Below are positions 1-20,000 of a stretch of DNA of 20,000 nt, piece by piece; the stretch's first letter is position 1, and every line of letters starts with the position of its first letter. The DNA is from Stramenopiles sp. TOSAG23-6 (taxonomy: Eukaryota). The stretch covers positions 50,927-70,926 of the forward strand of contig LT635912.1 in assembly GCA_900128565.1 (NCBI GenBank). Reading direction: 5' to 3'. The notes below the pieces were generated by a model that made no database searches, had not been told where the DNA came from, and saw nothing but the letters and a program-made list of their open reading frames with translations. A program made the translations under genes and the position numbers.

Positions 1-2981
1 TACTCATGAGACAACTAGCATCATCGGAATTACCACAGTTGTCCCAGTCCATAAAACAACCATCTTTCTCTCGAAGTCTTTCAGTATTCTGATTCTGATT
101 ATTAAAACTGTCAATACATTTCTGGAGTACTGTAGTTGGAAAATCAGATTCGTGGCCAATACCCATTTCTATCCAAGTCAGTGCTCTTGCGGACCACCTA
201 CTATATGCCCAATATGCGAACTTGCCAGCCTTTGGGACATATCCACCAAAGAGATTAATCAATACTGCAAATATGACAGAAGTTAACGTAGCAAGTGACA
301 AATCAGTTTGAAATGCACAGCCAACTGCGTAACCCATTCCAGATACAGTCCATACAACACAGAGAGCCCATTGTAGATATGAGCTTGTTGGGCCTGCAAC
401 ATCTACAATGAGTGCTACAGGTGCGATAAAACAAACAGCCCCGATACACTGGAGGGGGAAATCAACCAAAACTACTGCCAGAAAATACGCAAGTTTATTT
501 ACACCAGCACTTGCTTCACGCCAAAACACAATCTTCTTTTGACCACAGAATGATACACAAGAGACAGATGCTGCACAGACACCAAGAGCCATTGTCATGA
601 AAAAACCAAATGGGCCCAATTCATTTCGAAGAGGTTCAAAGCATATTTGTGTAAAAATATTCTTTTTGTACAATTTGTTAGGTATGGAATTTCGTACGAA
701 AAAAGAAATCGAAATGGAAGAAAAATAGAAACATACATTTCCATTCAGCACCCGATGGGCAATTTTTCGAATATTCATTGGCACCTCCTCTTGGCTCAAT
801 TAACAGTGGTTCAGATCCAAAGATGATAGCAATAACAAAACCATCAAATACAAATGCAAGTAAGTCAAATCCCAATTGGTATGTGCGAAAAAAACGAATT
901 CTAATATTTTGTACAATAAAGGCTCTCAATTGAACAAAAAAAACAGGAGCTTCTTTCGACGTATCTGACATTGTTTTGTTGTTTTCTGGTGTAAGTTTTG
1001 TATCTGACTTCGTTTCCGTTTTCATTTCCTGAAATGCTTTTGATAATTGGTTAGATGCAAGACGAGATGCATTAATCTGGGATTTCACATTTTTTGTAAT
1101 AGTGCTACTTTTGCTTTGACCACCATCATTTTCAATTCTACCGCATAAAACATCCAACACAAAATCTGCGAAATTGTCATCAGAATCTTTTTGGTACCCC
1201 ATTTTTGCAAAGTGAGCTTCCGCGAGGCTAGCTTGACCTAAATAAACAGTTTTACCACCATATCCAAGTAACATCAATGTATCGATTTGATTGTATATTT
1301 CAAGCCGAGGTTGATGTAGTACACTCACGACAGTAACTCCACCATTTGCAATGGTTTTCAATGCTTTCATTACCCCAACTGCTGTACTCGAATCTAAGCC
1401 ACTCGTTGGTTCATCTAATAAAATAGCTAAAGGATCCATTACCAACTCTAATGCAATATTGACTCTTTTTTTCTGTCCGCCACTAATTCCTCTTCTGTAC
1501 TCATCTCCAATGATGACGCCTGCAACGTCTTGAATGCCCAGAACATTCAGTACAGCTTCGACTCTATCTTTAATACTTTTCTCTGATACTTGTCTTGCAC
1601 TTAAACGCGTTTTGGCAGAATGTGTTATGGCTTCTCGAACTGTGAGTTCTGGATGCATGACATCAGATTGAGGCACAAAACCAATACGTGACTTAAAATC
1701 TGTTAAACATCCTTCTTTTTCATTGATAAATACTGTACCATCAGTATGCTCCAATTTCCCCGCAATGATATTAAGAAAAGTAGATTTCCCCGCTCCACTA
1801 GCACCAAGAATACACATTAAATTACCAGGTTTAATTTCGCCATTCGTCCCAGATAAGCGAAACTTCTGCGATTGTTTTTTTTTGATACAACAACCACAAT
1901 ATTTATATTGAGTTGGAATCTTCAATGCGAGGGAATGAAATTTAATAGATATCGAATCCTTTTTCGTTGTAGAGATTTTTTCGACTTTACTTTCTTGAGT
2001 TTTATTTTCTTGAGTTCCGAGATTTTGCATTTCAACTTGTGGTTGTTGGGAAACTTTACTTTGTCCTTTTCGAAAAAAACATACCAAAAAAAATTGTCCG
2101 CCCACTAAAACAATTACAATAATAAGCAAAAATGGTTCTGAATTTGATTTTGCCCCTTCGGCGCAAATGGATAATTTCCCACATTTTTTTGGAGTTTTTG
2201 ATCCCCTTGGACAATAATAACCTTTAGGACAAATTGTTTTAGTACCTGCATATTTGTCACAATAGTACCCAGACGGACATGCCACAGGATATTGATTTTC
2301 CTCGCAGTGTAAGCCTGGAGCACATGCAGTCAATGTGACGATACATTGAGATAAATCTCCAGCTTCTTGATAGATGTGTCCTGGTTTATGAGACACCCAT
2401 TTATATGGATCCTTACAAGTATTTTGGGTGGTTGCAGAGGCGTTTCCTTCACAACTACCTAAAAAACTTCGAAATTCATGACTGTTCATTGTGGCTTTTG
2501 CTTTTGTGTTTTTTTTTTCTAAATCACAGACAGATAATAATTGCTCGCGAAAGAAAAGTATTAGAAATGTGTCCTTTTCGTGGGCAGAGTTAAAATCAGC
2601 ACCATCTATTGGCCGTGTGCACACAGCTTTTGGCTTCTGACTCATGGCATGATACAGTTCAAGAAGTAGCGTTCGTGAAGCAGTGACATCTTTACACATA
2701 CTGCACTCGTTAGAAAAGTTACTTGAATTATCAGAAACACTCGTATCACCCATTTTTTCAAAGAATATTCTTCCAAAACATGTATTTCGTTGATTTTGGT
2801 TCCCCATTACCCCAATAATATTTTGAACTGCTTCTTTCGTTGGACTAGAGGAAATGTTCAATTTGTTTGTTAGCCAAACTTGAACCTCTGTGAGACAGCT
2901 CGACGTAATAGAAGAATTAAGTTGACTCGCATTCACATTCAATATCACTAAACACAGAAGTAGCATTAAAATATATTCCAT
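1..2981 (-). CDS. ABCG-family half transporter with signal peptide and Cys-rich N-terminal ectodomain (ABCG24/28/ADP1-like); exons 2981-737 and 642-<1; runs off the window
   Basis: Walker A GASGAGKST, GFVPQSD, signature ISGGQKKRV, Walker B LLDEPTSGLD, H-loop VLHQP, CPSGYYC/CPKGYYCP repeats. After removing 643-736 the frame is open to base 1 and encodes a hydrophobic TMD (WK/CFEPLRNELG...VFWREASAGVNKLAYFLA...YSRWSARAL). Confidence 0.93.
643..736 (-). other. Non-canonical intron (94 nt, GTATGT...AAATAT), member of the repeated intron family
   Basis: Junction TGG AAA T|GTATGT...ACAAATAT|GC TTT GAA restores W-K-C-F-E. TACCTAAC at 684-677, 34 nt before the 3' end. The first AG after the motif gives TAA and is out of frame. 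Confidence 0.8.
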
Positions 2982-3260
2982 GGCGAAAGTAATCCAAATT
3001 TACTCGCAATATAAATTTTCTTGGGGAGTTTAGGTTCTTTTTTGTCGAAGAGAGAAACTTTCAAATTTCAGCAAGTGAAAATTTCAAAATTCGCTGAAAA
3101 TCAAATTTGAAATTCAAATTCAAATTCAAATCGAAATATAATTGACAAGGTACAAAAAAAACATATAAATGCAAGTCCCTTACCGCAGAATTTATACATA
3201 CGTAGATATTAGATATATTTGAGATACTGCTTTATTTTTTGGTAATTAAAAAAAAACGAA

Positions 3261-3308: not shown

Positions 3309-5183
3309 ATGGTTCATTTCTTGACTACATTGATATATCTTTTGTATTATCACTGCATACATGCAAATGATGACCAATGTAATGAAGCTATAAAAAAGCA
3401 AAAGATAAACGTGAATAGTTCAGAGTGGAAACTGTCACCAAATCGTGTTGTTATGGACAGTAACTTTAAATGGGGTCGAGTTGTAGTTCCCATCTGGACG
3501 TCAGTATTTTTAGGCACTAATGATTCTCTCCCACACTTGGATAACACTTTACAAATTTTATCCTCATTTGAGAGTGATGAACTTGCGCTTGTTACAGTCG
3601 TAGGTGGTGGCGCTTATCTCCGTATTCTTGAACATATGGAATTTAGTTCTATTCATTTCTTTGACGCAAACGTTAACGAGTTAAGTAAACTTCGACTTGT
3701 TCATGACGATATTATCAAATATGACTATGATACATGGATAGCAAATGGTGGAATGCAGTCTGTAGCTAATAAAATTTCCTCACTGCGGGAAAAATTTTAC
3801 CTGCCAGCCCCACTTCTAACAGCAGGTGTAACCCTGCATCCTGCAACTGACTTTGAGTGGCCGATTCCTGGTCAGAGTAGTTATTATGATCCATTAGGTC
3901 GACGAAATCCACTTTGGTCAATTTTCCCTCCTTTATCTTACCCAGAGTATGCATGGAAACCAACTCGAAAGGGTTATGAGAGAGTACGCAGACAATTGAA
4001 ATATCGTGTGGCAAATGAATTTTATTTATCAGTTCCTTGTGGCATCATTCCACCTAATATTCTTTCAATAGTTTATGTTGATGGAATCAAAATTCCAAAA
4101 TCAACAATACGTGCGGTTTCACGTTCGGGTGATGCTATTGGTTTATGGTCGATGGTTGAAGACCAAAAATTACTCGGTAGGGGAAATAATTCAGATTGGT
4201 CAGATTCCCATTTCTTTTGGGAGCTCGCAGTTCGTTGGAGGATTGAAAGTAGCACTACAGTAATAAATAATACTAGAATCGGTATGGATAATATTGTAAA
4301 TAATGTAATGCATATTTGGGCAATTGAAGATATAAATATGATGGGAACAATCTACGATTGGATGTTTACAAGTAGCATGGAAGCATCGTCATTTGCTTCG
4401 TCTACTGTGACGACTTCAACACCCAATAAAAAGGAGACAGACAAATCTTTCAATGAAATCATTGTTTTCCATATTCTACTTGGTAAAGCAACTACTAAAA
4501 CGAATTGTTCAAAACGCGAAGAATTATTTATGAATGCGTTGATTCGAGCTGTAAAAGAACCACATGTAAGAAATGTTCTAGTTACTGAGCATAACACCTC
4601 TTCAAAACAATTTGATATTTTAACTAATCCATGTGCATTAAATGCAGCTAATATCAGAAAACTTATCAACAAAACATTGTCATTAACACCAGACAACATC
4701 AAAACGAACATAATAGCTACTCGTTTTCTACCTGGTGGTGGTACTCATGATAGAAATGTATTATTTGATATTGCAGTAAATGAAGGAATTCCATCAAAAA
4801 ATGGTAATAAAAAAGAAACTTTCCTTGAAGATAATAATAAATCTATGAGACCAGCAACTATTCAACTTCAGATTGATGAAAACACGAAAAAAAGGCCTAT
4901 TATTTTTCCATATGATGGGTCTGTAAAAGTATTACAATCTCTCGCGGCTGCTGCGTGCATGGATATTCCTCTTACTGATAAATCATGTATGTTTTATTTT
5001 TTTTAATTTCGATTTTTTTTTCGTACGCAATTTTGTACCTAACAAAAATATTGAATGTAAAATATTTTTCAAAATACATGCATAGACCAAATTATGAATG
5101 AAATGAAAAGAATTATAAAAGAAGATAAAAAATCTTCTGCGAGGGCGATTCGCCCTGAAAAAGAGAGCAAGGTGATTCAATAA
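3309..5183 (+). CDS. Hypothetical secreted protein; exons 3309-4986 and 5080-5183
   Basis: 565-aa ORF with a hydrophobic N-terminus (MVHFLTTLIYLLYYHCIHA). It runs into a family-type intron; splicing gives ...DKS/CIDQIMNEMKRIIKE...KVIQ* with TAA at 5181-5183. Confidence 0.75.
4987..5079 (+). other. Non-canonical intron (93 nt, GTATGT...ATACAT), member of the repeated intron family
   Basis: TCA T|GTATGT...AAAATACAT|GC ATA, flanked by a CATG direct repeat. TACCTAAC at 5036-5043. In-frame TAA inside. Boundary inferred from alignment to the other copies because no protein homology was available. Confidence 0.7.
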
Positions 5184-5983: not shown

Positions 5984-6266
5984 GTTGTTGGGTATATTAC
6001 AATTTGAAACAGTTTAATTATCAAATCAAACTGAAGATATATCTTATTTTCTTCAAAGATACTGATTTGAGATTGATTAGGCCTAATTCCGAGTGACACG
6101 ATCGCCGAAGATCGACTGTTTCTGTTTTTTTTCGTTTTTCGTGTCGGTGTTTGTTTGCCGTTTGTTGGTTCGGGAAAATTTGAATTCAAATTTCAGCAAA
6201 AATTTCAACAACAAAACAACACAACACACAATAAAGAGTTTTGAATTTATCGTTTTAAAACTTACG

Positions 6267-8749
6267 ATGAGATTGATGAGACTTTTTATATATCATTTTG
6301 CATTCGTTCACACTGTTGCAGCAGAAGCATCTTTTGTGTTAAAAAGTTATGAATGCGTCGCTGGCTTCGATTGTATGTATCAAAACAGTTGTGCTAATGA
6401 TGAAGGAGTTTCTTGTCCCATTGGCCGGTTCTGTGGCAGACCCAGTTCTTTCCCCAATGGACTTTTTCAATGTGATGGTGACCATAATCAAAGTTGTCCA
6501 GGTAGTGAATTCCCAGATGATAGGTGGAGAACTTCAAAGTGTGCCACGGGTGCATACTGCCCGACGACAGTAACAAATCAAAAATGTGAAGCTGGATACT
6601 TTTGCCCAAGAGGGTCTGTCAAAAGAGTCAAGTGTTCAATAGGTTCAATATGTGGCGAAGCATCACACTTTCCAATTGGATTTTTGCTGTTTGGTTTCGC
6701 AATACTTTTGTTTATTTTTTATATTTTATGCCGTCGCTTTTGTCTCACGACAAAAATTGGTCATACGATTTCAAATGATGGTTGCGAAAACAAAAAAGAA
6801 CTTCCAGTTTCTAAGAAACTGAAAATGCCATTTCCTCTTCAATTCGAATTTGATAATATATGCTGGAACTTTCGAGATAAGCCTATTCTTCGTGGTGTAT
6901 CGGGTTCTGTCAAAGCAGGTGAAATGATTGCAATTATGGGTCCATCAGGAGCAGGTAAAAGTACACTAGTAAATTGTCTAATGTCACGGTATACCCCCAG
7001 TACCGGAACAGTAACAATAAATGGATACAAAGATATTGAATTCTCTAGTATATGTGGAATAACTGGTTATGTCCCACAAGATGATATAATGTTGGCTAAA
7101 TTAACAGTCAGGGAGAATTTAATGCATTCAGCAAATACTCGAATAAATTCTCAAGTAAAAGCAAATTACTCTTCAAAGGCTCGTGTTGATTCTGTACTCA
7201 CCAGTCTAGGTCTAGAACATGTACAACATTGTATAGTTGGAGATACCCGTAAGCGTGGACTAAGCGGTGGTGAAAAAAAACGTGTATCGATTGGTCTTGA
7301 ACTAGTGGCTAGTCCGTCTGCAATTTTTCTTGATGAGCCTACGACAGGGTTAGACTCATCCGCGGCTGAAGTTGTGATTAATCAATTAAAACTCTTTGCT
7401 AATGAAGGACACGCGGTTATAGTAATTTTACACCAACCACGTGCTAGTATATTCAAACAATTCGATAATATCCTTTGCTTAACATCTAGAGGCGAAACAT
7501 TTTACTTTGGAAGTCCTCTTAAAGTTCGTGACTTTTTAAACCAAATACAAAATCCATGTCCATCGGGGAAAAATCCAGCAGATCATTTAATTGACATTGC
7601 AACGAAAAAGGGTAAAGTATCAATGACATCTACCCCAACAAGTATTTCGGATAAATCTAAAACAATCTCAGAGAATACAGTAAAATTTGAAGATCCAAGA
7701 TTAAACATCAAAGGAAAATTAGCGAGTTGGGGAGCCCAGTTTTTATTCTACTGGAAACGTTCCTGTGTACAACAGCTACGAGATTCCATGGCACTGTATC
7801 TTTATTGTGGTCTTGTTTTCCTCATGGTTGCTTCTCTCTCAACTGGTTTTTCACCTTTTATCCAAGAAAATCTGGAGAGTGTTTACAAACCACCCCTCGG
7901 CAAATCATTGAGAGATTATTGTCCACCACACAATAAAGCATGTTCTGGCAGCATTAACGACGATGGATTAATACAAATGATGTTTTTCTACTGTATGTCA
8001 ATTGGATCAATTGGAATGCTTGCTGCATCTCGAACATTTTACAGAAGTGAAATGATAGTAATGAAAAGAGAATCAAATATTGGTCTATCCTCATCTGCTT
8101 GCATCATTGCAAAAGTTTTTGCTGATTTAAATGTAATTATATTACTATCATTGCTCGCATCAGGACTATGGCTTGCCATGGGTTATCCGGGTGGACCTGT
8201 TCGTTGGTTTGTTCTTACTTTTTCATTGTTGTTTACTTGCTACGGATGGGGATATTTTGTTTCACAAATTGTATCCGATGATATGATTATGACAGTATGT
8301 ATGGTGTACGTTTTCATACTAAATTTTGTACCTAAGATTCTTTTCATCCTAGTGTTTCTCTTTTGCTCACATTTTCTAAAAATAATTTTACTTTTCGAAT
8401 GATTCCAGTTGTCATATTCTAATTTTACATTTTTTCTGACGTATAATTTAATTACAGCACTGCTCTTGGCTTATCTGCTTTTAATGGTGTGAATCCAAAA
8501 CTTGTGGATGTTCCTTGGCCGTGGAGAACCATCTGGGGCATGGGATATAGTAGGTGGATTTCCGAAGCCATATTTTCCACCTTTACAATGCATGATAGAA
8601 ACAGTGGCTTACCTGTGCAATTTGCTGCATCGAGATTTGGCTATGATGTCTCCGACAATCAATTTATTCTTGATATTGTAGTTGTAGTGATACAAGGAAC
8701 CTTATTGAGAATATTTACAGGATTTTTGATTGTTAAAAAGAATACATAA
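6267..8749 (+). CDS. Second ABCG-family half transporter with Cys-rich ectodomain; exons 6267-8305 and 8458-8749
   Basis: ATG at 6267 gives a signal peptide (MRLMRLFIYHFAFVHTVAA). CPIGRFC/CEAGYFCP repeats, GPSGAGKST, LSGGEKKRV, FLDEPTTGLD, ILHQP. The TMD is completed by the spliced exon (MV/TALGLSAFNGVNP...YSRWISEA). Confidence 0.93.
8306..8457 (+). other. Canonical GT-AG intron (152 nt) carrying a degenerate copy of the family motif
   Basis: ATG GT|GTACGT...TTCTGAC...TTACAG|C ACT restores the frame. Contains AAATTTTGTACCTAAG at 8321-8336. Confidence 0.85.
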
Positions 8750-8869: not shown

Positions 8870-10106
8870 TCACGCATTTGCTGCTATTTTATCTGCTTCA
8901 CCTACTATTATCGTTGATTCTGTCGATATTGCAAAATCTTCGGCCATATCCAAACTAGAACTTCTTTCTTCTTCTTTTGCTGCTTGTACTGTTGTTTCTG
9001 CTTCTTTCAATTTCAAATTTGCAACTGAAAAAACAAATGTTTCCTCTTCTTTCTTCCTCTGACAACGAAATTTCCAACGGACCTGATTTACATTTGTTTT
9101 ATCTGGATCATTAGATGTCACTTCGTATCCTTCAAATGTTGGTATACCTCCTAACCATTTTTGCTTTTTTGTTTTTGGAAATCCACTTTGAATTACGCTA
9201 TTTCGTGCAATTTCAGATATATCAGTTGTACTAAGGCACCATATCTGTCGAGCTATGGAATATTCTTCTAGTAGAGGTGCATCTGATAAATGAAATATCA
9301 TAGGATCATCCGTGGATAAACTAACATTTAACCCTCGCTTGAAGAATTTATAAAAGGGTTGATCTTCGTATCTCATGAATAGAACATTGTTTGATACTGG
9401 TGAAACTGCGAGCCCAATATTATCTAGATAGTAAAGATATTGCATAACTATATCATTTGCTAATCCAATTCCGTGATTAATTCCATTAGCCAATAAATAA
9501 GTAGTACAAAGATGATGTTTGGAACCACTTTCACCTGCATGTGGACGCAATGAAAAAGTATTCATTCCTTTAGAACGCCTTAATGAATTCAATCGGCTAA
9601 TATTTGCATAAAGGTAATATAATTGATAAGAATATGGAGGATTTTGTTCCGATGTCCAATCTTTTGGAGTTGTAACCTTTCCATCAATTGTTGCAAGAGG
9701 GAGATCAAGTAAGCTTTCATCATCGACAGAGTCAAATCCTGAAACATCTTTTAGAAATTCTGAAAGCTCCGGATATTTTTTTGGTTTCTCAGTTGCATCA
9801 AAAAGAGGTTGAAATATATTATATATAACTTCTTGATATGATGTTACTTTTTTCAATTTGTGAAATATGCGGTAAATGTATTGTGAAAAAATATTTTTAC
9901 TCGAAATATTTTGTTAGGTACAAATTTGGTATAGAAAAAAATTAAATTTAAATTTTGAAAACATATATTCTTGGAATTTGAATAAGCCATCGATTGTGTG
10001 GCTGCTGGACTAGCTTATTATTGAGAGCCCATTTTGCAAGTTTATCCCATGCATCAATGTTATCACCATAAATGGATAAACGATACTCTGCCCACGTCCA
10101 TTGATG
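8870..10106 (-). CDS. AMPD: AMP deaminase, C-terminal half only (upper boundary approximate); exons ~10106-9967 and 9875-8870
   Basis: AEYRLSIYG, WDKLAKW, WLIQIPRIY, GFDSVDDES, NPPYSY, LRPHAGESG, INHGI, SPVSNN and the SLSTDDP signature. No N-terminal half upstream on this strand. Confidence 0.92.
9876..9966 (-). other. Non-canonical intron (91 nt, ATATGT...ATACAT; can be slid to AT-AC)
   Basis: CCA AGA AT|ATATGTTTTC...CACAATACAT|T TAC CGC restores the AMPD motif QIPRIYRIF. TACCTAAC at 9920-9913. No usable in-frame AG nearby. Confidence 0.85.
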
Positions 10107-12565
10107 CAGACATCCGGCGATATTGCTGCAATTGTTTTTCAAATTGATTACTTTGTGTGTGCGTATCATTCAAAGAGTGTGACATATTTATATCAAAATT
10201 ATTTTTCATATATTGCGTCATTTCTTGTATTCCGCCAAGAGAACCACTACGCCCACGTCTTACAGGAGGCGATTTGACAAATTTTGACCCAGATGAAGAT
10301 GCACGAGCTCGTTCAGGCCAAAGTGAGTGCAAATCAGGGTCTGACGGAGTTCTGCTCATGTTAAAACTATTTCTTTGCTGACGAACATTTCTACTATTAT
10401 CTGGTGTTTGCCTCAAATAACCTCTTATTTGTGTAGGTGTTGTTGGTGAACCCAAAAAAGTTGAATTAGGATGTCGTGGGGGTGTTGACCCCAGAGGGGT
10501 TGGCAAATTTGATCCTAGTATCATTATAGGCGATTTTCTTGAGATATTAGTGTTAGGGGACGCATGTCCTATTTGTTGAAATTGCGGCGGCGTATTTATG
10601 GAACTGTTCAAACTTGTTGGCATGCTATTATCTGATGATGTGCTTAGTCTATGTACCCTGTCTGCAGTCATAGGAATACTATTATCTGATGACAAGCTTA
10701 GTCTATGCCTTTCAACGACTTGTCCGACAGTTAACGGTGCATTTGAATGTAATCTTTCTAATGAACTTGCAACACTGTATTGAATAGGACTTGATGATGA
10801 TGCAACCTGCATATTAGGATTCGATCTATTGCTTCCAGGTGATAAAGGGTGACAATTCCGAGGTATAGATAAAGGTAATGCAACAGACATTGGGGAACCA
10901 GCATCATTTTTTACATTGGTATATTGATTATGAGAACCAATACGTGATTGCTGTTGGGGTGACCAATTCTGTGCACTTTGAGATGGATAGGTTCTTTGAT
11001 GTTGAATCATATGAGGCATCATTGGCTGTCGTGGGGAGTAATGTGGACCTTCACTCATTGGAGAAGATATTGAAGGATGTTCCATCGACCGATCATTCTT
11101 ATACATGACTTTCATTTGTCCCATATTTTGACGTCGTGCAGAGTGTTCCATACCAGTAGATGAAGACAATGCACCTTGAGGTCCAGAATATTGTATATAC
11201 TGCTGACGAGAATTCGAATAAATATTATTTGGATTGGGTTGAAATTCAGGTTCAACATATTTTTGTGGTTCAATAGCAATATTATTCTGTTGGCCTCTTT
11301 GCTGTTGATAGTATCTATTCTGTACCATCATAGCAAATCCTGGTCCTAAATGGTCTGGAAGTGAATGTGGTCGGAAATGATCATGTATTTCGGAAAAATA
11401 TTATTTTTAGTAAAAATTTGTTAGGTACAAAATTTGGTACAAAAAACAAATTCGAAATTCAATTTTGAAAACGTACATTTGGTTGACTTGCTCGGTATAA
11501 CTCTGGAGGAGATCTATAAGGAGAGTCTAATCGCAAAGGGTAGCGATACATGAGATTATGATTCCCACTATGTATTACACTCTTAGTCTGTTGTTGTATA
11601 TCTTGGGTATAATGAGTATCATGATAGTGTCTTGCTTGGTTTCGTACTCTTGGGATATTTGAACTCTGTTTTTCTACCTCTTGATTAGGGTTAGGGTTAC
11701 GTTTCTTTCTCACGTCTTGGCCATCAGAAGCATCTTTCCCTTCCGGTCGATCAGCATAATTATTAATAATACAATCAGTGACATTTGGTTGTCCAAGAAT
11801 TGAACCTGAGAGATCAAATCCACAGTCTTTTGCATACATTACGCTAGCTTTTAATTCACCGAACGGTGTTCCAATGGGAGAAAAAAAATATTTAGAAGTT
11901 TCCCGATTTGAGTTAAAGCTCAATGGCAGAGAACCATCATTGCTCACTGCATTTGCGCCAAATTCATAATTTATATGTGTTGTTGACAAATTGGACCGTT
12001 TCGTATTTCGCATCAGACCATATGCAGGTAGAACTCTAACAAAAGCAAATACCGATCGAAGAAATATTGCAATTCGCTTATAAACCTGTCTTAGTTGAGA
12101 GGTCATATCTCCATACTTTTTTAAACTTAAGTCTGCACCACCAGATGGATCAAAGTGTAAACTCCAACGCTCAAGTAATATACGTGACGAAGTTGTGTTA
12201 TCATTGTGATTCTTGGCTTCTACAGAGGGTATTCCGACACCAGAAAAATGACCAGCACAAGCTCCACCCCCGCCCATCCAAAATATGTCACACTCTTTGA
12301 ATGGTAAATATGGATCATGCTTCCATGGTTCTAGCTCTTTGCGCACAAAATCTATGTTTTCTATGTGCAAATTAAATGGCGGCCTCGTCTTCTTCTTTTG
12401 AGTCCTTTGAGGAGACTGAAAACGAACACGAGATTGTAACACAATCTCCGATATTTTGAACAAAGATTCAAGTACAATACGTTCACACTTTCCTCGCTCA
12501 TTCTTTTCCAAAGCATTACCTTGTGCAGATTGCCGGCGTTTAATTGCACTAGAAGGTGCAGACAT
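10063..12565 (-). CDS. ATG13: Autophagy-related protein 13 (HORMA domain plus long disordered S/P/Q-rich tail); exons 12565-11477 and 11382-10063; extreme C-terminus probably chimeric
   Basis: HORMA motifs EIVLQSRV, FNL, LLERWSLHF, VYKRIAIFLRSVFAFVRVLPAY, SPIGTPFGELKASVMY, followed by a low-complexity region. Confidence 0.85.
11383..11476 (-). other. Non-canonical intron (94 nt, GTACGT...ATACAT)
   Basis: CCA AAT|GTACGTTTTC...GAAATACAT|GAT CAT joins the two ATG13 ORFs in frame. TACCTAAC at 11427-11420, 37 nt before the 3' end. Confidence 0.78.
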
Positions 12566-12818
12566 TATGAAAGTCCCACGTGGGTGGGAATGATTCCCGC
12601 TGTCCCCAAGAAATGCTTTTATAATATTTTATCAGTGAAATACTAATGTTGTCCGATTTCGAGATTGATTGTGTTTTGTCGAGAAGAACTTTCTTTTCAC
12701 CAAAATGAAACTGTTTTTTCCTGTTCAACTGACGCAACATTTTTTCATAATTAATTAAACGTATATTTGTGACAGTGATACATTTTACAACAATAGTTGA
12801 AATTAAAAGCGACGATAG

Positions 12819-13523
12819 ATGGATTTGGCAGAAGAATATGAACAATGTGGTCTTGGTGCATATCAGCCATATTACGACAAACTTTTACTTGAACACCCTA
12901 AAACTGTTGGCTCATCTGTGTCGTCGAAAGAACGTCGAGGTAAAACATATACTGGCTCTAAATTTGTGTATGGTGAAATACGATTTGACTCTTTTTCTCT
13001 GGCAATACATAAAGTTCGAATATATGGTGGATTGAAAACCCCCGGAGGAATTTTCTACGACCTTGGGTCGGGTATAGGAAAGCCATGTTTTGCTGCAGCT
13101 CTACTGCACGACTTTGACAAGGTCTATGGGATTGAAATGCTACCAGGTTTGAATAAAGTAGCTAATGACATACTCGTCAAATGGAACGAATTAGTCGGCG
13201 ATAAATATGCTTGGAAAGAAACCCGTGCTGTGAAAGAATTCAAGAAAAAAAAGAACAATATTGGTATAGAATTTATATGTTCGGATCTTTGCACGTTTGA
13301 TTGGACAGACGCGACTGTTGTGTTTGCTAATTCAACTTGTTTTACTGAAGAACTTATGGCAAAAATCGCAGAAAAGGCTCTATCCTTAAAGAAAGGCACG
13401 TTTTTCATTACATTTACAAAAGCATTGCCAAATGTGGAAGGTTTCTGGTACATTCATGAAGCTAAGTCATATACCATGTCATGGGGACCTGCGACGGTGT
13501 ATATACAGGAAAAGATTAGATGA
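12819..13523 (+). CDS. DOT1-domain (histone H3K79-type) SAM-dependent methyltransferase
   Basis: YGEI, FYDLGSGIGK (motif I), YGIEML, DATVVFANSTCF and MSWG motifs of small protist DOT1-like proteins. Confidence 0.8.
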   Translation: MDLAEEYEQCGLGAYQPYYDKLLLEHPKTVGSSVSSKERRGKTYTGSKFVYGEIRFDSFSLAIHKVRIYGGLKTPGGIFYDLGSGIGKPCFAAALLHDFDKVYGIEMLPGLNKVANDILVKWNELVGDKYAWKETRAVKEFKKKKNNIGIEFICSDLCTFDWTDATVVFANSTCFTEELMAKIAEKALSLKKGTFFITFTKALPNVEGFWYIHEAKSYTMSWGPATVYIQEKIR

Positions 13524-13556
13524 ATGAACCAAATAATTACAGTCGTCGTGAACAGC

Positions 13557-13608
13557 CCCAATAGACCCTAGGACCTAAAACCTAAAACCAATAACCTAAA
13601 CCCAATAG
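13557..13608 (+). repeat. Degenerate ~7-nt-period CCTAAA-like array, telomere-like, intergenic
   Basis: CCCAATAGACCCTAGGACCTAAAACCTAAAACCAATAACCTAAACCCAATAG; CCCAATAG occurs at both ends. Confidence 0.55.
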
Positions 13609-13732
13609 TCACCGGTTATACATTTAGAATAAAGTTATTAGATTTGAATAGCAATAATTCATAGTATTCTTTTGTTACATTGAATATATATATATTTCAA
13701 CAAAGCTTTTTTATATTATATATACTTAATAC

Positions 13733-15070
13733 TTAAGTAGAAGCGTCGAGAAAATTGTCAACATTTTTGATTTGCATTTCTGCAAGAAGTTTCAATGCTT
13801 CTTCGTCTTCAACGTCCAATTCACGCATTTCACTTAATAATTCTTGAGCAACTTCATAAAACCCAACTTCATTATCATCTAACATTTCACTTTCAGATAC
13901 ATCGGAATGATTTTCAATTTCTTTCTGACATACTGCCAAAGCTTCCGCATATGTTTCTACTCCGAATCTAGATTTCATTCCTTGCAATACACTACCCAGT
14001 ACCATATTCGTATTCAAGTCATTCAATATTTCGTGTTCTTTAGAATGCAAAATTTTGCTAGCTTCTGTTCCAGTTTGTGTTGAGTGTTGTAATTGTTGTG
14101 CGCTACAGATTTCATCTCTACTCTTCAAAGATCGCGCCCCACTATGCCATAAGCCAGGTCTCCGATTTAAACGTTCAGTTAATTCATCCAATGCACTCAC
14201 AGTAACTACGCACTGTTCCCGCAATAATAAGTCATACACGTTACAATTTTCAGAACTGATCACAGTCAAATACGGTATATTTCGGGAAGCCCAGTAAAAG
14301 TTTTCATCCACTTCATCAGTACCGCGAACAAATAGAATTCCTTTTTTACCGACCCAGCCATGAGCTTCGATGGCTTTAACCAAAGCTGACGTTTTTCGTG
14401 TTGGCATTACAGCTTCATCAACAACAGCAATATTACCTTCACGCCACTTGGCAGCTAAAGCCGTTTTAATTCCCAATTGAACTATCTTTTTATTCAATTT
14501 TTGTGACCAAACACGGGTTTGACGAGGACCGTGAGCCTTACCACCACCCCGCCAAATTGGTGAACGAATTGAACCGTGCCGGGCGCGTCCTGATCCTTTT
14601 TGTTTCCATGGTTTCCTCCCACCACCACTGACTTCCGCGCGATTTTTTACTTTAACTAGGCCGCCACTTTTGACTTGACGCCTGTTTGCACGCTGCCAGC
14701 AGACTACACGATGAACTAAATCACGGCGGATGGGTACTCCAAACACACTATTTTCTAGTGTTACTTCCGCGACTGGATCTGAATGTAGGGCACCAACTTC
14801 CATCTTCGCAACAGGCATGTGTTTCACGGTTGTGTCGGATCTTCCTAATGATGCGATGTCTAGCTGTCCAACATTGTCTGCAAAGAGGCTATCCACACCA
14901 TTAAACGTTTCTTCTGGTACTACAACGTTAGATGGAAGGTCAAGGTTGATAGAAGTCCTATTAAGGCTGGATTCAGTGGCAACACAGAAAAGACGCACTG
15001 TATTAACACGCAATCGCATAACTCTGGAACATGATGCACCAAGTAACTGGGAGATGGCGGGGGAAAACAT
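13733..15070 (-). CDS. MRPL4: Mitochondrial (bacterial-type) large ribosomal subunit protein uL4 with presequence and acidic C-terminal extension
   Basis: VFGVPIRRDLVHRVVCWQ, RAEVSGGGRKPWKQKGSGRARHGSIRSPIWRGGGKAHGP, SRNIP, NVYDLL; Arg-rich N-terminal transit-like peptide. Confidence 0.92.
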   Translation of the reverse strand: MFSPAISQLLGASCSRVMRLRVNTVRLFCVATESSLNRTSINLDLPSNVVVPEETFNGVDSLFADNVGQLDIASLGRSDTTVKHMPVAKMEVGALHSDPVAEVTLENSVFGVPIRRDLVHRVVCWQRANRRQVKSGGLVKVKNRAEVSGGGRKPWKQKGSGRARHGSIRSPIWRGGGKAHGPRQTRVWSQKLNKKIVQLGIKTALAAKWREGNIAVVDEAVMPTRKTSALVKAIEAHGWVGKKGILFVRGTDEVDENFYWASRNIPYLTVISSENCNVYDLLLREQCVVTVSALDELTERLNRRPGLWHSGARSLKSRDEICSAQQLQHSTQTGTEASKILHSKEHEILNDLNTNMVLGSVLQGMKSRFGVETYAEALAVCQKEIENHSDVSESEMLDDNEVGFYEVAQELLSEMRELDVEDEEALKLLAEMQIKNVDNFLDAST

Positions 15071-15294
15071 TGAACTTCAGTTGCAGTATATACAAGCTAC
15101 AAAAACAGTAGTACACGTACTAATAAGGTAAGGCAAAGTGTAAACTGGATGCAGTGTGCAAAGACACGTGCAAAAAAGACCGACACGTGGCAAAACGACG
15201 ACGACGCAGACATGGCCAAAACTAAGGCCTTACTTACTAAAAGTAAAAGTTATTATATTACTTTTACCGCTTTCTCTACGATAGTACCGTTTCG

Positions 15295-18200
15295 ATGGGA
15301 ATGAGTGGTGATTCTGCTAATGTAGAACAGCAACTTAAGGAAGTGAAACTTGCATTTGCGGACTATGACTGGAATACAGTCGGAAAGATCTGCGCAAGAC
15401 GTGAAATCGCACACTTGTCTATTTTTAAGTCATATGCTGCGCGAGTTGCCAGTATCCGTAGAGATTATACACGCGCAGTTGCACTTTGTGATGATATCGC
15501 ACGATCTTCTCCTACATGTACCGATCCAGAAACACTCTCAAATTTGCGACATATCTATAGCTTGAATGGCTTAGATCGGCAAGTCGTTGACCTGTATGAA
15601 AAAGCCTTAACAGCAGCAGCACCATCCTTTTCTTCCCAGAAAATCGATATTGATGCTGAACCTACTCTTGTCGAACGACTTTCTCGAGCTCTTTTTGATG
15701 CATACGGCAATGTTGGTTCGAGCAAAAAACAGCAGGCCATTGCGCTTAAATTATACAAAATGACTCAAAAGAAACAATACATGGTCTGGGCGACGACTTG
15801 TCTATTGCTTCAATGTCCATCTGAAAAATCTAATAGAGGTAGTGAACGTGAAGCTACTCTTAATCTTGCAATATCCATGCTACGCCGCGTACTTGATATC
15901 GATAATGTCTCATCAAGAGGTAATGATGGTGAATCTGTTCGCTTGTATGTTGAAACTTTACTAGAGTTAAAAAAGTTCCAAGACGTTTTGACAGTTTTAG
16001 ACTCTACAATTGTTCAATCAAATTTTAAACAAAAACAAGATGATACAAAAGATGAAGAGTCATCAATTACAAAAGATGACGCAGATGATGGTGCGTTTGC
16101 TGGTGCTTTTACATACCGCGAAAGTCTCCTAATTCGTGCTGACGTTTTATCGAAAATGGAAAGATGGAACGAAGCTGCTGATTCCAATCGCGAATTTCTT
16201 CTTGAAGTTGATGTGAATGACTGGGTTTCGTGCCGTTCCTTTATATTTAATACAAATTCTCTCTATAGTAATGCTTCTACGGAACTAGAGAAATCCACAA
16301 TTGATTCAAATTCTGATAAATTTGTTGAGTTATTACAAGAAAAAGCAAAATCTTTTCCATCTGTCCCGAGAGCTCCTTGTACGTTTTCATCATTTCAATG
16401 TCGATGTTTTTTCATACGAAATTTTGTACCTAACGATTTTTTTTATTTCTAAAAAAAAATATTTTTCACAATACTTTTCTTCTAGAAATTGCGTTAGCAC
16501 ATAGTCGCATTGTAAATCGTACCAAAAACAGCTCATGTGACATGTCTACTTCTATAGAAATGTTATGTCAAGCCTCTGGTGATTTTCTTGATTTAATCAA
16601 AAATTATTGGAAAATATTTGGTAAGAAATTATGCTGTTTTCTGGATGTTCAGCATTTTTTAAATATTTTAACCATTCCAACAGAATGTTCTCGGAATGAA
16701 ATGAAATGTTCTACAGAATTAGCACGAAACATCGATCAAGCTATTGGTCGTATAAAAACTGTTTTGTGTACAATGATAAATTCTTCACAATCAAACCGGA
16801 CAAACCCTAAACCTAATTCATCTTTAAAAGTTTCAAAAGAAAGGCTGAATAATTTACATTCTTACATTACTGCACAGCAAATCTCTCGATTTATTGGTTT
16901 ACATCGGTTAAATGATAACAATCAATTACTTGAAATTGCACGTGATCTCATTATTGAATGGAAAATAACATTAGATTTGAATTCTAAAAAATCTTCCATG
17001 GGAGATACTACTCTTAATAATATATCGAATGAAATTAAGAAATTAGATTTTCAGAAAAAGAAAGAAAACGAAAATCCTAATGATGACCAAAGAGAAGTTC
17101 AACACGGTGATGATTTGCTACTCCTTGCGGCGCATATTTTCATAGAATTATCTATCCGTTACACCTTCGCTGCTCAACAACTGTCAACATCTATCGAAGA
17201 AATGTCGAATAATAAAAGAAAAGGCTGGTCATTTTTAGTCGATGCAATTGTTGCAGCAGAATTGGGACTGAAACATTCCGCATTCAACTTTCAAATGAAG
17301 TTAGTAGTAATAAGAGTGTACAATGTACTGGGTGCATTTTCTTCCGCGATGGCTCGGTTTAAGGAACTCGATATTAAACACATTCAAATTGAAACTTTAT
17401 CATATGTTGCACTTGATAATTCTATAGCCACTGGATTTCATGACAATGCTATCCAGATGTGTGAAAGTATTGAATCATTTCATGGACATAGTTCACGTTG
17501 TATTCCAAAATATACTAGTACTGCATATAAATATGGAAATGTGTGTCAAGTGCGAGAATTCTTCAAGTTAAAAGAGAAATTAAGACGATCTCATCAATTA
17601 GTATCATCTCAAATTGATCTTTTTCATTTAAATATGATGAAACTTCCCAAATATTCTCACCAATGGCTTAAAGAACAATTTATGATGGGACATTTAAAAG
17701 ACATTCCCATGACAGAGCTCGAAAAACTTTTGGAAACAGAAGATAGAAATATTGCAAGTTCCTGGGATGCACCTATTCACGCATTAGCTGGAATTAAAAA
17801 TGCCGAAAACCTTAAAGGGAGTGCTACTCCTCAAATACAAAAGATTGAAGCTGTTGACTTGCGTATACGTTGTTTATATCCTATACTTTTAATGTTAAGT
17901 AGTTCGTTTACCGAAGAAAAACGTCTGAAAGAAAAACTTGTTGAATTTAAACGTTTGGTCAAAACATTACATGAAATTCGGATAATTTCTCCAAATAAAA
18001 CTCTTCATGAAAAGATTATGCAAGGTACATTTCAAATGAAATGTAATTGCTATGAGATAATTGCTGATGCCTTTGATATTGCATTAGATATTTCAAGTTT
18101 AATGGGAACAGAGCTGTCGTCTGATGTGAAGTCAGAATTGCGTAATTCTTTACAACCTAAATTAATATCTATGAGCAAACGTCTCACAAAACTGGCTTCA

Positions 18201-18854
18201 TTTTCAGCGTATTCATTATGTGAAGAAATAGATAGTAATCATGTGGATGAATTATGTACCGTAGATATGTCTACAATTGATTGGGGATTTCGTGCATGGG
18301 ATATTATAAAACATGGGGATTCCGTTCCTCTCTCTGCCTCGAATGATGGAAAAGGTTTACGAGGTTGTTGGATTTTTTTAATGCATTTGTCTACTTGGTT
18401 GACCAAATTGATACCTGAGTGGTACGGCGCATTACAAATTACTGGTTCCAAAGTAAAAGGAAAGAATAAAAGTAAAGGTAAAAATAAGAAAGGTAAAAAA
18501 AACAAAACAAAAAAATCTTCAAAAGGTAATGATGCTCCCATCTCTGCTCTAAAAAACATCACCGCTGTTCTTGATGATATACTTATGGGAATGGCAAAAC
18601 AAGCGAAAGTTGCTCAAGGTAAACTTGCAAAAGGTTTGTCTCCAAAACTTCAACTAGAAGGGTTAGGGTTAGGATCCACACCTATTTCTGTACTAGATAT
18701 AGCTTTGCAAGAATCTTCAGCAATGCTTGAAAAACTTCATCAAGTTAGAATGGAAACTTTGCGGAAAATTTCGTGTGATCATAAGGAAGCACTTTCGAAA
18801 GTGTTGAAAGCTGCGTTAGATGGCAGTGCGTTATTACGAAAAATTCGCAGATGA
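15295..18854 (+). CDS. NAA25: N-terminal acetyltransferase B auxiliary subunit (NAA25/MDM20); exons 15295-16378 and 16477-18854
   Basis: TPR-like N-terminus, KQQAIALKLYK...YMVWA, RAP/FLLEI, FGKKLCCFLDV, SAFNFQMKLVVIRVYNVLG, FKELDIKHIQIETLSY, AYKYGNVCQVREFFKLKEKLRRS. Confidence 0.88.
16379..16476 (+). other. Non-canonical intron (98 nt, GTACGT...ATACTT)
   Basis: GCT CCT T|GTACGT...CACAATACTT|TT CTT gives RAPFLLEIAL, matching the NAA25 RGPxLAxLEL-type helix. CTT direct repeat. The first downstream AG (16484-16485) creates TAA; a later AG (16497) is in frame but would delete the helix. Confidence 0.72.
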
Positions 18855-19019
18855 TTTTAATCATTTTATATAAAAAAAATATTTGTATTTTTTGTATTTT
18901 TAACGCATCCGTTTCGTTTATATCCAATTTAAATTGGTTACCGTTAAAATTTGTATCCTCTTTCATCACCTTGCAAGTTGTAACTAAAGTAGAAAAATAT
19001 TTTACAGTACTCTTAATCA

Positions 19020-19926
19020 ATGAGTTGCTGTCATGGTAGTCTCAGCACAATGATGTGGGATATGACAAAGAAAAAGATTTTGGATGAAAATGGTTCTGCA
19101 AAATTTTTCAAGTTGTCGTTATCCGAAGCTGCTGAAAGCTCAACCGCAGACGCACGAAAGGCGTGTGCAATGATATCTAAAGCACGTGAGCTAAGAGCTA
19201 AATACAGGAATAAATCAGGTGATCTGGGCTTTTCCTGTGATGAAAACTCACCGAGAAGGGGAGTGTTGAGTGTTGATAGCGGGGCGTATGAGCTTGTAAA
19301 TATCGCAGATCAAGTAATAAAAGATGACCTTCCAACAATGGGTGACTTTGTCAGTGACTATCGGGAACTTATATCAATCAGAAACAGTGGTGCGTGCAAA
19401 ACTCTTTGCCATAAGCGATTAACACTTTTAGAAACGACATTTGAAATACACAAATCTATGAACGGTGATCGAGAAATGGCACTTGAACGAGCTTCAAAAA
19501 CAGATTTTTATGGGATACATAAGGTGGACACACATGTTCATGCTGCAGCTGCAGTTGCAGCTCCAGATATTTTGTCTTTTATTAAAAAAAAAGTCAAAAA
19601 TTGTGGAGATGATGTGGTGGACGGCGAAAGGACACTAAAAGAAGTATATGATTCAGTTGGGGTTCCTCTCGACGAGCTTACTGTTGATGCAATTGACATA
19701 GCTGCTGATGCAACACTTTTCAATCGTTTTGATCACTTCAATGCCAAATGTATGTTTTCATCAGGAATTTCAAATTTTAATGATTTTCATTTCTTAGTTA
19801 TTACGTACAGTATACCTAACAAATTTCAAATATTAAATATTATTTCACAAAAAATACAATCCTTGTGGAAATGCATCACTTCGACGTTTATTTCTCAAAA
19901 CTGATAATGACGTGAATGGTACTTAT
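19020..19926 (+). CDS. AMPD: AMP deaminase, N-terminal half; exons 19020-19749 and 19856-19926, continuing past the window
   Basis: ELRAKY, KTLCHKRLTLLE, DFYGIHKVDTHVH (Zn-binding His pair), TLKEVY, FNRFDHFNAK/YNPCG...LRRLFLKTDN. Confidence 0.92.
19750..19855 (+). other. Non-canonical intron (106 nt, GTATGT...AAAAAT)
   Basis: GCC AAA T|GTATGT...CACAAAAAAT|AC AAT CCT restores the conserved FNAKYNPCG. TACCTAAC at 19813-19820. No AG between that motif and the next donor at 19927. Confidence 0.9.
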
Positions 19927-20000
19927 GTATGTTGTATTTTTTTTTAATTTCGAATTTATTTTTCATACGAAATTTTGTACCTAACGATTTTTTTTTGAAA
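19927..20000 (+). other. Family-type intron, truncated by the window end
   Basis: ACT TAT|GTATGT donor; TACCTAAC at 19978-19985; 37 nt identical to the NAA25 intron. Confidence 0.85.

Follow-up and report, generated by a model that had tools for sequence, protein, structure and literature searches.

Towards the end of a 20,000-nt stretch of DNA (the whole stretch that was analysed, hereafter ‘the window’), an AMP deaminase gene is interrupted by a 106-nt intron, at 19750–19855 of the plus strand, that has no usable AG at its 3′ end. This intron, designated c6, is one of eight copies (c1–c8) of a single repeat family in the window, all of them within genes and in the sense strand. In all six complete copies, frame or homology is kept only by an excision that runs from the first base of the element to 2 nt past its ...AATAC end. 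The family probably consists of introners that carry their own 5′ splice site and branch motif, and that take a 3′ splice site other than AG from the duplication at their border.

An AMP deaminase intron with no 3′ AG

The window is eukaryote-like and gene-dense, with 32–44% G+C per kb. Pfam matches named two ABCG-type transporters, an AAA_33 kinase-like protein, ATG13, a DOT1-like methyltransferase, mitochondrial uL4, a NatB/MDM20 subunit and two AMP deaminase pieces. Exon 1 of the plus-strand AMP deaminase piece (19017–19749) is an open frame from 19017 that matches PF19326 over profile positions 99–264 (E 4e-35), and eight homologues matched it by tblastn over 19065–19748. Read directly and by script, the exon terminates in ...GCCAAAT at 19749 (...FNAK plus one base), this last base being the first of a split Tyr codon. 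The exon that follows, of 71 nt (19856–19926, plus strand), begins with the AC at 19856, continues through 23 codons (...NGTY) to ...ACTTAT at 19926, and is succeeded by GTATGT from 19927; it matches profile positions 266–288 (E 1.9e-5) and is gapless against the homologue motifs. Since exon 1 stops at profile position 264 and the small exon covers 266–288, position 265 is the split Tyr codon (T|AC), and PF19326 passes over the junction without a gap.

The junction AAA T|...|AC AAT CCT, which the original prediction had fixed from conserved AMP deaminase sequence, is indeed required, both by the profile and by 47 matches to the motif F-D/N-x-F-N-x-K/R-Y-N-P-x-G in 45 of the 120 homologues fetched (1087–1941 aa as listed). 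The joined reading fits this motif without a gap, and the alignment to homologues that had been proposed as a check is likewise gapless at 19749|19856. Around this site, all homologue sequences displayed (24 of the 47 motif matches, plus variants) have Tyr at the junction. Taken over all exons in the window, coverage of the profile comprises positions 99–264, 266–288, 305–347 and 349–624, with none of positions 289–304 seen there.

Transcript assemblies contained no near-identical protein spanning the c6 junction (100-aa query), and a 244-aa query recovered one protein, at 42% identity. This protein, the only mid-length relative of exon 1 (P0001, from a G+C-rich contig), ends ...FDNFNR, within one codon of the end of exon 1, and an intron may interrupt its gene at almost the same position. 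The nearest AMP deaminases are unnamed or belong to several supergroups, and a protein atlas placed the mitochondrial uL4 of the window only at the level of Eukaryota.

The intron delimited by this junction begins with GTATGT from 19750 and ends in AT. Within 19750–19930, a script found AG at 19763, 19796 and 19809 only, and the sequence is AG-free from 19811 to position 20000 (190 nt). The expectation that no AG would be found between the putative branch-point motif and the donor at 19927 was thereby confirmed, the AG-free run extending to the end of the window. The motif itself, TACCTAAC, is present, although 19820, the position originally given for it, is its last base: it spans 19813–19820, 35 nt before the 3′ junction. 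Also as predicted, an acceptor placed after the AG at 19809–19810 would be in frame and meets TAA nine codons later. An exhaustive script (first intron base 19600–19899, intron of at least 21 nt, frame open over 19017–19926) returned no GT-AG and no GC-AG solution for c6, which lacks the 3′ AG required of canonical U2-type introns.

An AG-free stretch is by itself unremarkable, because AG-less runs of at least 117 nt occur eight times on the plus strand. What goes beyond chance at c6 is the excess of TACCTAAC in the window, together with the gapless PF19326 junction. The 3′ end of the intron, CACAAAAAAT, falls in the same alignment columns as the family's CACAATACAT and differs from it by two substitutions; since CACAAAAAAT occupies the CACAATACAT columns, the ‘TAC’ that comes after c6 is exon rather than the end of the element.

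The repeat family and its excision rule

The eight copies are distributed over five genes and the two AMP deaminase pieces, so that many similar copies are present in unrelated genes, as is characteristic of introners. Pairwise identity among them is 61–79%, c6 being the most diverged. A profile built from six copies (nhmmer) returned only those six (c6 with E 9.3e-10), c7, which is cut by the window end, and the partial c8. TACCTAAC has seven matches in the window against 0.34 expected, a number reached in 0/200 shuffles, and is invariant in seven copies.

Elements are 91–106 nt long and start with GTAYGTTT (GTAYGTTT/ATATGTTT at the 5′ ends of the complete copies), after which comes a T-rich stretch with TTTCGA. 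The middle consists of TAC(G/C)AAATTTTG and then TACCTAAC, about 20 variable bases follow, and a 3′ block, AATATTTTT..CACAATAC, closes the element. The distance from the end of TACCTAAC to the 3′ junction is 34–42 nt in complete copies. Judged by sequence, both a GT-type 5′ site and an upstream branch motif, as expected of U2-type introns, are present (GTAYGT in 5/6 complete copies, with ATATGT in c3; TACCTAAC in 7/7).

Two of the complete copies join long frames in phase: c4 (11476–11383, minus strand; 94 nt, GT..AT) unites frames of 389 and 445 aa in the ATG13 gene, with PF10033 upstream, and c5 (16379–16476, plus strand; 98 nt, GT..TT, flanked by TT) unites frames of 377 and 791 aa in the NatB/MDM20 subunit gene, with PF09797 downstream. 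Copy c1 (736–643, minus strand; 94 nt, GT..AT) is in an ABCG transporter gene, and c2 (4987–5079, plus strand; 93 nt, GT..AT) lies close to the 3′ end of an unnamed frame of 566 aa, where the 34 open codons after the junction make it weakly informative. Copy c3 (9966–9876, minus strand; 91 nt, AT..AT) is in the C-terminal fragment of AMP deaminase, and only for the cut given by the excision rule is the profile continuous (347 | 348 | 349). The same cut leaves 17 residues between PR-I/L/V-Y/F and NIF, as in 13 of 15 homologue domains, compared with 19 and 20 residues for two other cuts.

Under the excision rule, the ends are GT..AT in four copies, GT..TT in one and AT..AT in one. In 6/6 copies, excision by the rule leaves long frames open on either side, and the excised piece closes with the same 2 nt that immediately precede the element (AT five times, TT once). 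Because of this repeat, moving any junction 2 nt leftwards leaves the mRNA unchanged. Ends after sliding are, for c1 to c6 in order, AT-AT, AT-AC, AT-AC, AT-AC, TT-AC and AT-AA; the earlier remark that an AT-AC slide is possible for other copies therefore holds for three of the six complete ones (c2, c3 and c4).

Several other cuts were tried and rejected. Homologue spacing and the Pfam profile exclude c3 as TT..AT (with Asp kept after PRIY) or as GT..AC, and homology rules out as acceptor the inner AG that c3 possesses 11–13 nt past TACCTAAC (9900–9912, minus strand). A cut before ...AC in c2, c4 and c5 was dismissed on hand reading, with c4 and c5 running into stops; the cut 2 nt past the AC keeps the frames open. 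The first base of c3 is A rather than G (ATATGT), in a host frame that is intact and needs the family-homologous cut, and first-base changes seem to be tolerated in the family.

The two remaining copies are incomplete. Copy c7 starts at 19927 and runs off the window end (19927–20000, plus strand), presenting the 5′ part of the element and TACCTAAC at 19978–19985 (nhmmer 19945–19989, E 2.4e-6). Copy c8 (8294–8459, plus strand) is a predicted GT..AG intron of the second ABCG gene, its frame read by hand (nhmmer 8306–8336, E 0.007). It begins with the family's GTACGTTTTC and contains TACCTAAG, its 3′ part of approximately 135 nt is unrelated, and it has an ordinary ...TTACAG end; c8 may be a copy, either old or hybrid, that gained an AG. 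The two ABCG genes are diverged paralogues with Cys-rich N-terminal regions, located 3 kb apart at 678–2999 (minus strand) and 6087–8749 (plus strand). By eye from the frames, the site of c1 is uninterrupted in the paralogue.

The 2-nt repeat is like a target-site duplication, but with AT so common a target preference is also compatible with it, and the TT/TT case of c5 is the sole direct sign of true duplication. Bases before the insertions are AAAT (c1, c4 and c6), GAAT, TCAT, TTAT and CCTT, in mixed insertion phases (0, 1 and 2), and suggest, at the level of sequence, that insertion favours sites whose last bases are (A)AT. Inverted ends, GTAT/ATAC, extend over just 3–4 nt, leaving a transposon origin weakly founded: the element may have spread as a DNA transposon with 2-nt duplication, or by reverse splicing that favours sites after AT.

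Beyond the window, the core pattern of the family was absent from viral contigs, and in JGI metagenome contigs it was found at 23 loci, none of which on inspection was this family. Two metagenome loci in G+C-richer DNA (L005 and L023) have approximately 37 nt like the core (..TTTTCGAAATGTTTC TACGCAATTTTGTACCTAAC) and lack the remainder of the element; these stretches may represent a distant relative or chance. Rfam gave no match on the window.

Precise removal from mRNA is documented by RNA for c1, and for the five other complete copies by continuity of frame or profile only. Four metatranscriptome runs contained 0.09–0.19 of sampled words of 10001–20000, and their contigs were mapped to the whole window at 90% likeness. 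Among the best-supported joints listed, there was one clean intron joint, that of c1: in the poly(A) metatranscriptome X10, a contig of 355 nt (depth 7.6) covers 421–641 and 736–869 but omits the 94 nt between them. Joining leaves the frame open, and the RNA joint agrees exactly with the excision rule. Its position is ambiguous by up to 3 nt, and on the coding strand the possible ends are TA..TG, GT..AT, TG..TA and AT..AT: never AG, never AC. This spliced contig is environmental, and an allele without the insertion would yield the same sequence. RNA across c6 had been proposed as a check on that intron, and its joint, 19749|19856, was not among the best-supported metatranscriptome joints listed.

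Other contigs bear on splicing less directly. The alignment of one X7 contig starts exactly at 736, with 15 letters unplaced, and that of another stops exactly at 11476, the 5′ site of c4, with 42 unplaced; as support for splicing these breaks are weak. Against splicing stand contigs from the X8 RNA library that cover the interior of c6 at 19775 and 19824 (depth 2.2–5.6), and another that covers c8 unspliced (8240–8481); they may derive from pre-mRNA, from introns that were retained, from other copies or from DNA carry-over. Between 412 and 474 contigs per run (X6–X8 RNA libraries) fitted at least two places of the window, and summed depth over the repeat core was approximately 250–2000 (5004–5046, the 11340–12006 bin, 16407–16448 and 19937–19996; poly(A) libraries included) versus approximately 0–5 in most other bins. 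The multi-place contigs and high core depth indicate a large family in the communities that were sampled; the excess depth may come from numerous unspliced copies, from excised introns that are stable or from DNA carry-over.

Mechanism and competing explanations

In the explanation preferred here, a short (91–106 nt) introner-like element would have spread into many genes of a low-GC marine protist, with c6 as a diverged copy. Each copy would supply a 5′ splice site at its first base (GTAYGT), an invariant branch-type motif, TACCTAAC, and the conserved 3′ block, and is bordered on both sides by a direct repeat of 2 nt, in most cases AT. The RNA removed would comprise the element plus the downstream copy of the repeat, exactly restoring the uninterrupted frame; because that downstream copy leaves with the element, the last two bases of the intron are the repeat (AT or TT) and not AG. 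In c6, the end of the element would have mutated from ...ATAC to ...AAAA, the cut remaining in the same alignment column. The major spliceosome is the presumed agent: it would cleave at |GTAYGT, use TACCTAAC as branch site and pick a 3′ site 34–42 nt further on, with no need of an AG, and c6 itself would be spliced in this manner.

The main rival retains the junction and the family and shifts the chemistry leftwards by 2 nt. On this view the introns would be AT-AC in type, handled by a major-type spliceosome through compatibility of a first A with a last C; the duplicated target would furnish the 5′ AT and the element the AC, with c6 (AT-AA), c1 (AT-AT) and c5 (TT-AC) as tolerated variants. 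GT..AT and AT..AC cleavage are indistinguishable here, as the 2-nt slide gives the same mRNA. Major-spliceosome AT-AC introns and first/last-base suppression do exist, three of the six copies (c2, c3 and c4) become AT-AC on sliding, and c3 begins with A whichever way it is read. However, the slid 5′ site, ATGTAT.., is a poor match, while a perfect GTATGT or GTACGT occurs 2 nt further in in 5/6 copies. The slid last base is C in four copies and T or A in the others, whereas under GT..AT cleavage the last base is T in 6/6, the preceding base is A in 5/6, and the first base is G in five and A in one. Cleavage at GT..AT is further favoured by the predicted intron c8, which starts with the same GTACGTTTTC and, on hand reading, is in frame only if cut before its G. 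An AT-AC chemistry for the family is rather unlikely.

It is improbable that the copies are removed by something other than the spliceosome, whether as nonconventional introns with paired ends or as elements that are simply missing from the DNA of some cells or alleles. The sole RNA joint is environmental in origin, and the combination of non-canonical termini with a short direct repeat at the border is found, in passages of the available accounts, in euglenid, diplonemid and Amoebophrya systems (PMC7789003, PMC11282704, PMC12621601). Passages on the introns of Euglena, hemistasiid diplonemids and Amoebophrya describe non-GT-AG borders, direct repeats at junctions and repeated copies, all of which are shared by the present family; the euglenid-type systems are described there as having extensive pairing of intron ends and variable borders, in contrast to the uniform 5′ end seen here (PMC12621601, PMC7789003). 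RNAalifold predicted no pairs in a consensus structure of the six introns, and hence no end-to-end helix, so that the paired-ends mechanism is inapplicable. In addition, nonconventional-intron systems have neither an invariant branch-type motif nor a strict 5′ consensus, and six genes in 20 kb (including those for ATG13, the NatB subunit and AMP deaminase) require removal of the elements for their frames to be open.

It is more improbable still that the AMP deaminase copy is a pseudogene or an assembly artefact, in which case c6 need not be spliced at all. The suspicion has its source in the layout of the gene, which is found in two complementary pieces, one on each strand: the plus-strand part (profile 99–288) and a C-terminal fragment at 8870–10166 of the minus strand (profile 305–624). 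The minus-strand piece has no upstream AMP deaminase exons and overlaps the last 104 nt of the ATG13 frame, out of frame (10063–10166), as might be expected of a rearranged or chimeric contig. In addition, the sequence probably originates from a small data set of 2015. Both pieces, however, have intact frames and gapless profile matches, the same excision rule operates in four unrelated genes, and seawater metagenomes of another study contain 0.54–0.84 of the words of 10001–20000. The minus-strand fragment is not an intact copy, and therefore offers no proof that the plus-strand copy is a pseudogene.

Inverting 10170–20000 would put the two AMP deaminase pieces in order, and the layout points to an inversion, either genuine or chimeric, that has its breakpoint close to c7. 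A possible assembly chimera leaves the analysis of the junction unaffected; the gene is not traceable past base 20000. Trans-splicing of the two halves was considered and dropped, c7 having its own branch motif and looking like a complete intron. The eight homologues matched by tblastn (P0003–P0007, P0009, P0024 and P0050) each match the AMP deaminase pieces of the window twice, and so carry tandem AMP deaminase domains; they originate from Amoebozoa, Euglenozoa, Amoebophrya and unnamed marine transcripts.

Least credible is c6 as an AT-AC intron at 19752–19857, which loses the Tyr found in all printed homologue sequences at the site (Lys-Cys-Asn instead of Lys-Tyr-Asn), and whose equivalent cannot be the rule of the family, given that the site corresponding to the AT at 19752 is AC in c4 and c5 and that the RNA contig rules out the corresponding cut for c1. 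This pair nonetheless keeps frame and length, and to that extent qualifies the original assertion that neither GT-AG nor AT-AC explains the intron, which stands as regards GT-AG (no solution) and the 2-nt slide (AT..AA).

Known systems and significance

By copy number, genic location and precise removal, the family is of the introner type. As portrayed in passages of two sources (PMC11282704, PMC7789003), the introners of Micromonas pusilla and Aureococcus anophagefferens are likewise short, multi-copy, non-autonomous and genic, with a short target duplication; one splice site lies in the element and the other in the duplication, and the element is removed with one repeat, restoring the frame. 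For Micromonas, the element is described as holding the 5′ site and the duplication as holding the 3′ site and supplying its AG (in the relevant passage of PMC11282704). Those passages give both sets of introners a canonical AG, from a duplication of at least 3 nt, and clear terminal inverted repeats (PMC11282704, PMC7789003), whereas the present family has a duplication of 2 nt (AT or TT), introns whose last two bases are AT or TT, and inverted ends of only 3–4 nt.

A non-AG 3′ end formed with the help of a duplication has a parallel in the MITE-derived introns of Fritillaria borealis (AG-AC and AG-AT), which a passage in PMC11282704 presents as transposon-derived, with an AC or AT 3′ end made in this way, and as thought to be processed by an adapted major spliceosome. 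According to the same passage, these introns start with AG and are without a standard 5′ site (PMC11282704), in contrast to the GTAYGT and TACCTAAC of the present family. The hosts also differ, a tunicate in the one case and a gene-dense protist in the other.

A likeness to U12-type AT-AC introns is seen in the three copies that read AT-AC after the 2-nt slide. U12-type introns tolerate varied 3′ dinucleotides, have the 5′ consensus ATATCCTT, and place the branch site approximately 10–15 nt from the 3′ site. In the complete copies, ATATCCTT is absent and the branch motif is 34–42 nt from the 3′ site.

A search of full-text literature, outside which most subscription journals and supplements lie, found no description of such a family, and ‘GT-AT’ together with ‘introner’ gave no full-text match. 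A published introner screen accepts only AG and AC as 3′ ends, as described in a passage of PMC12130899. Since screens of this kind take just those ends, a family such as this one would be discarded or mis-annotated, and, as far as that passage goes, the screening criteria may be the reason that such families are missed (PMC12130899).

Introners are the best current explanation of bursts of intron gain. In the present family the 5′ site and branch motif look standard and the AG alone is missing, which isolates the choice of a 3′ site made without an AG. Gene models built on the GT-AG rule would truncate or frameshift many proteins of this organism. We suggest tentatively, as a broader proposal that has a real though somewhat less than even chance of being correct, that most introns (7/8 of those seen) are young introners, spliced by the major spliceosome at an AG-less 3′ site that is set by the 3′ block and falls on the 2-nt duplication (A/U then U). 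If this is true, it would constitute a natural splice code in which the G-G contact between first and last bases has been replaced, and an element duplicating only 2 nt could colonise coding sequence harmlessly.
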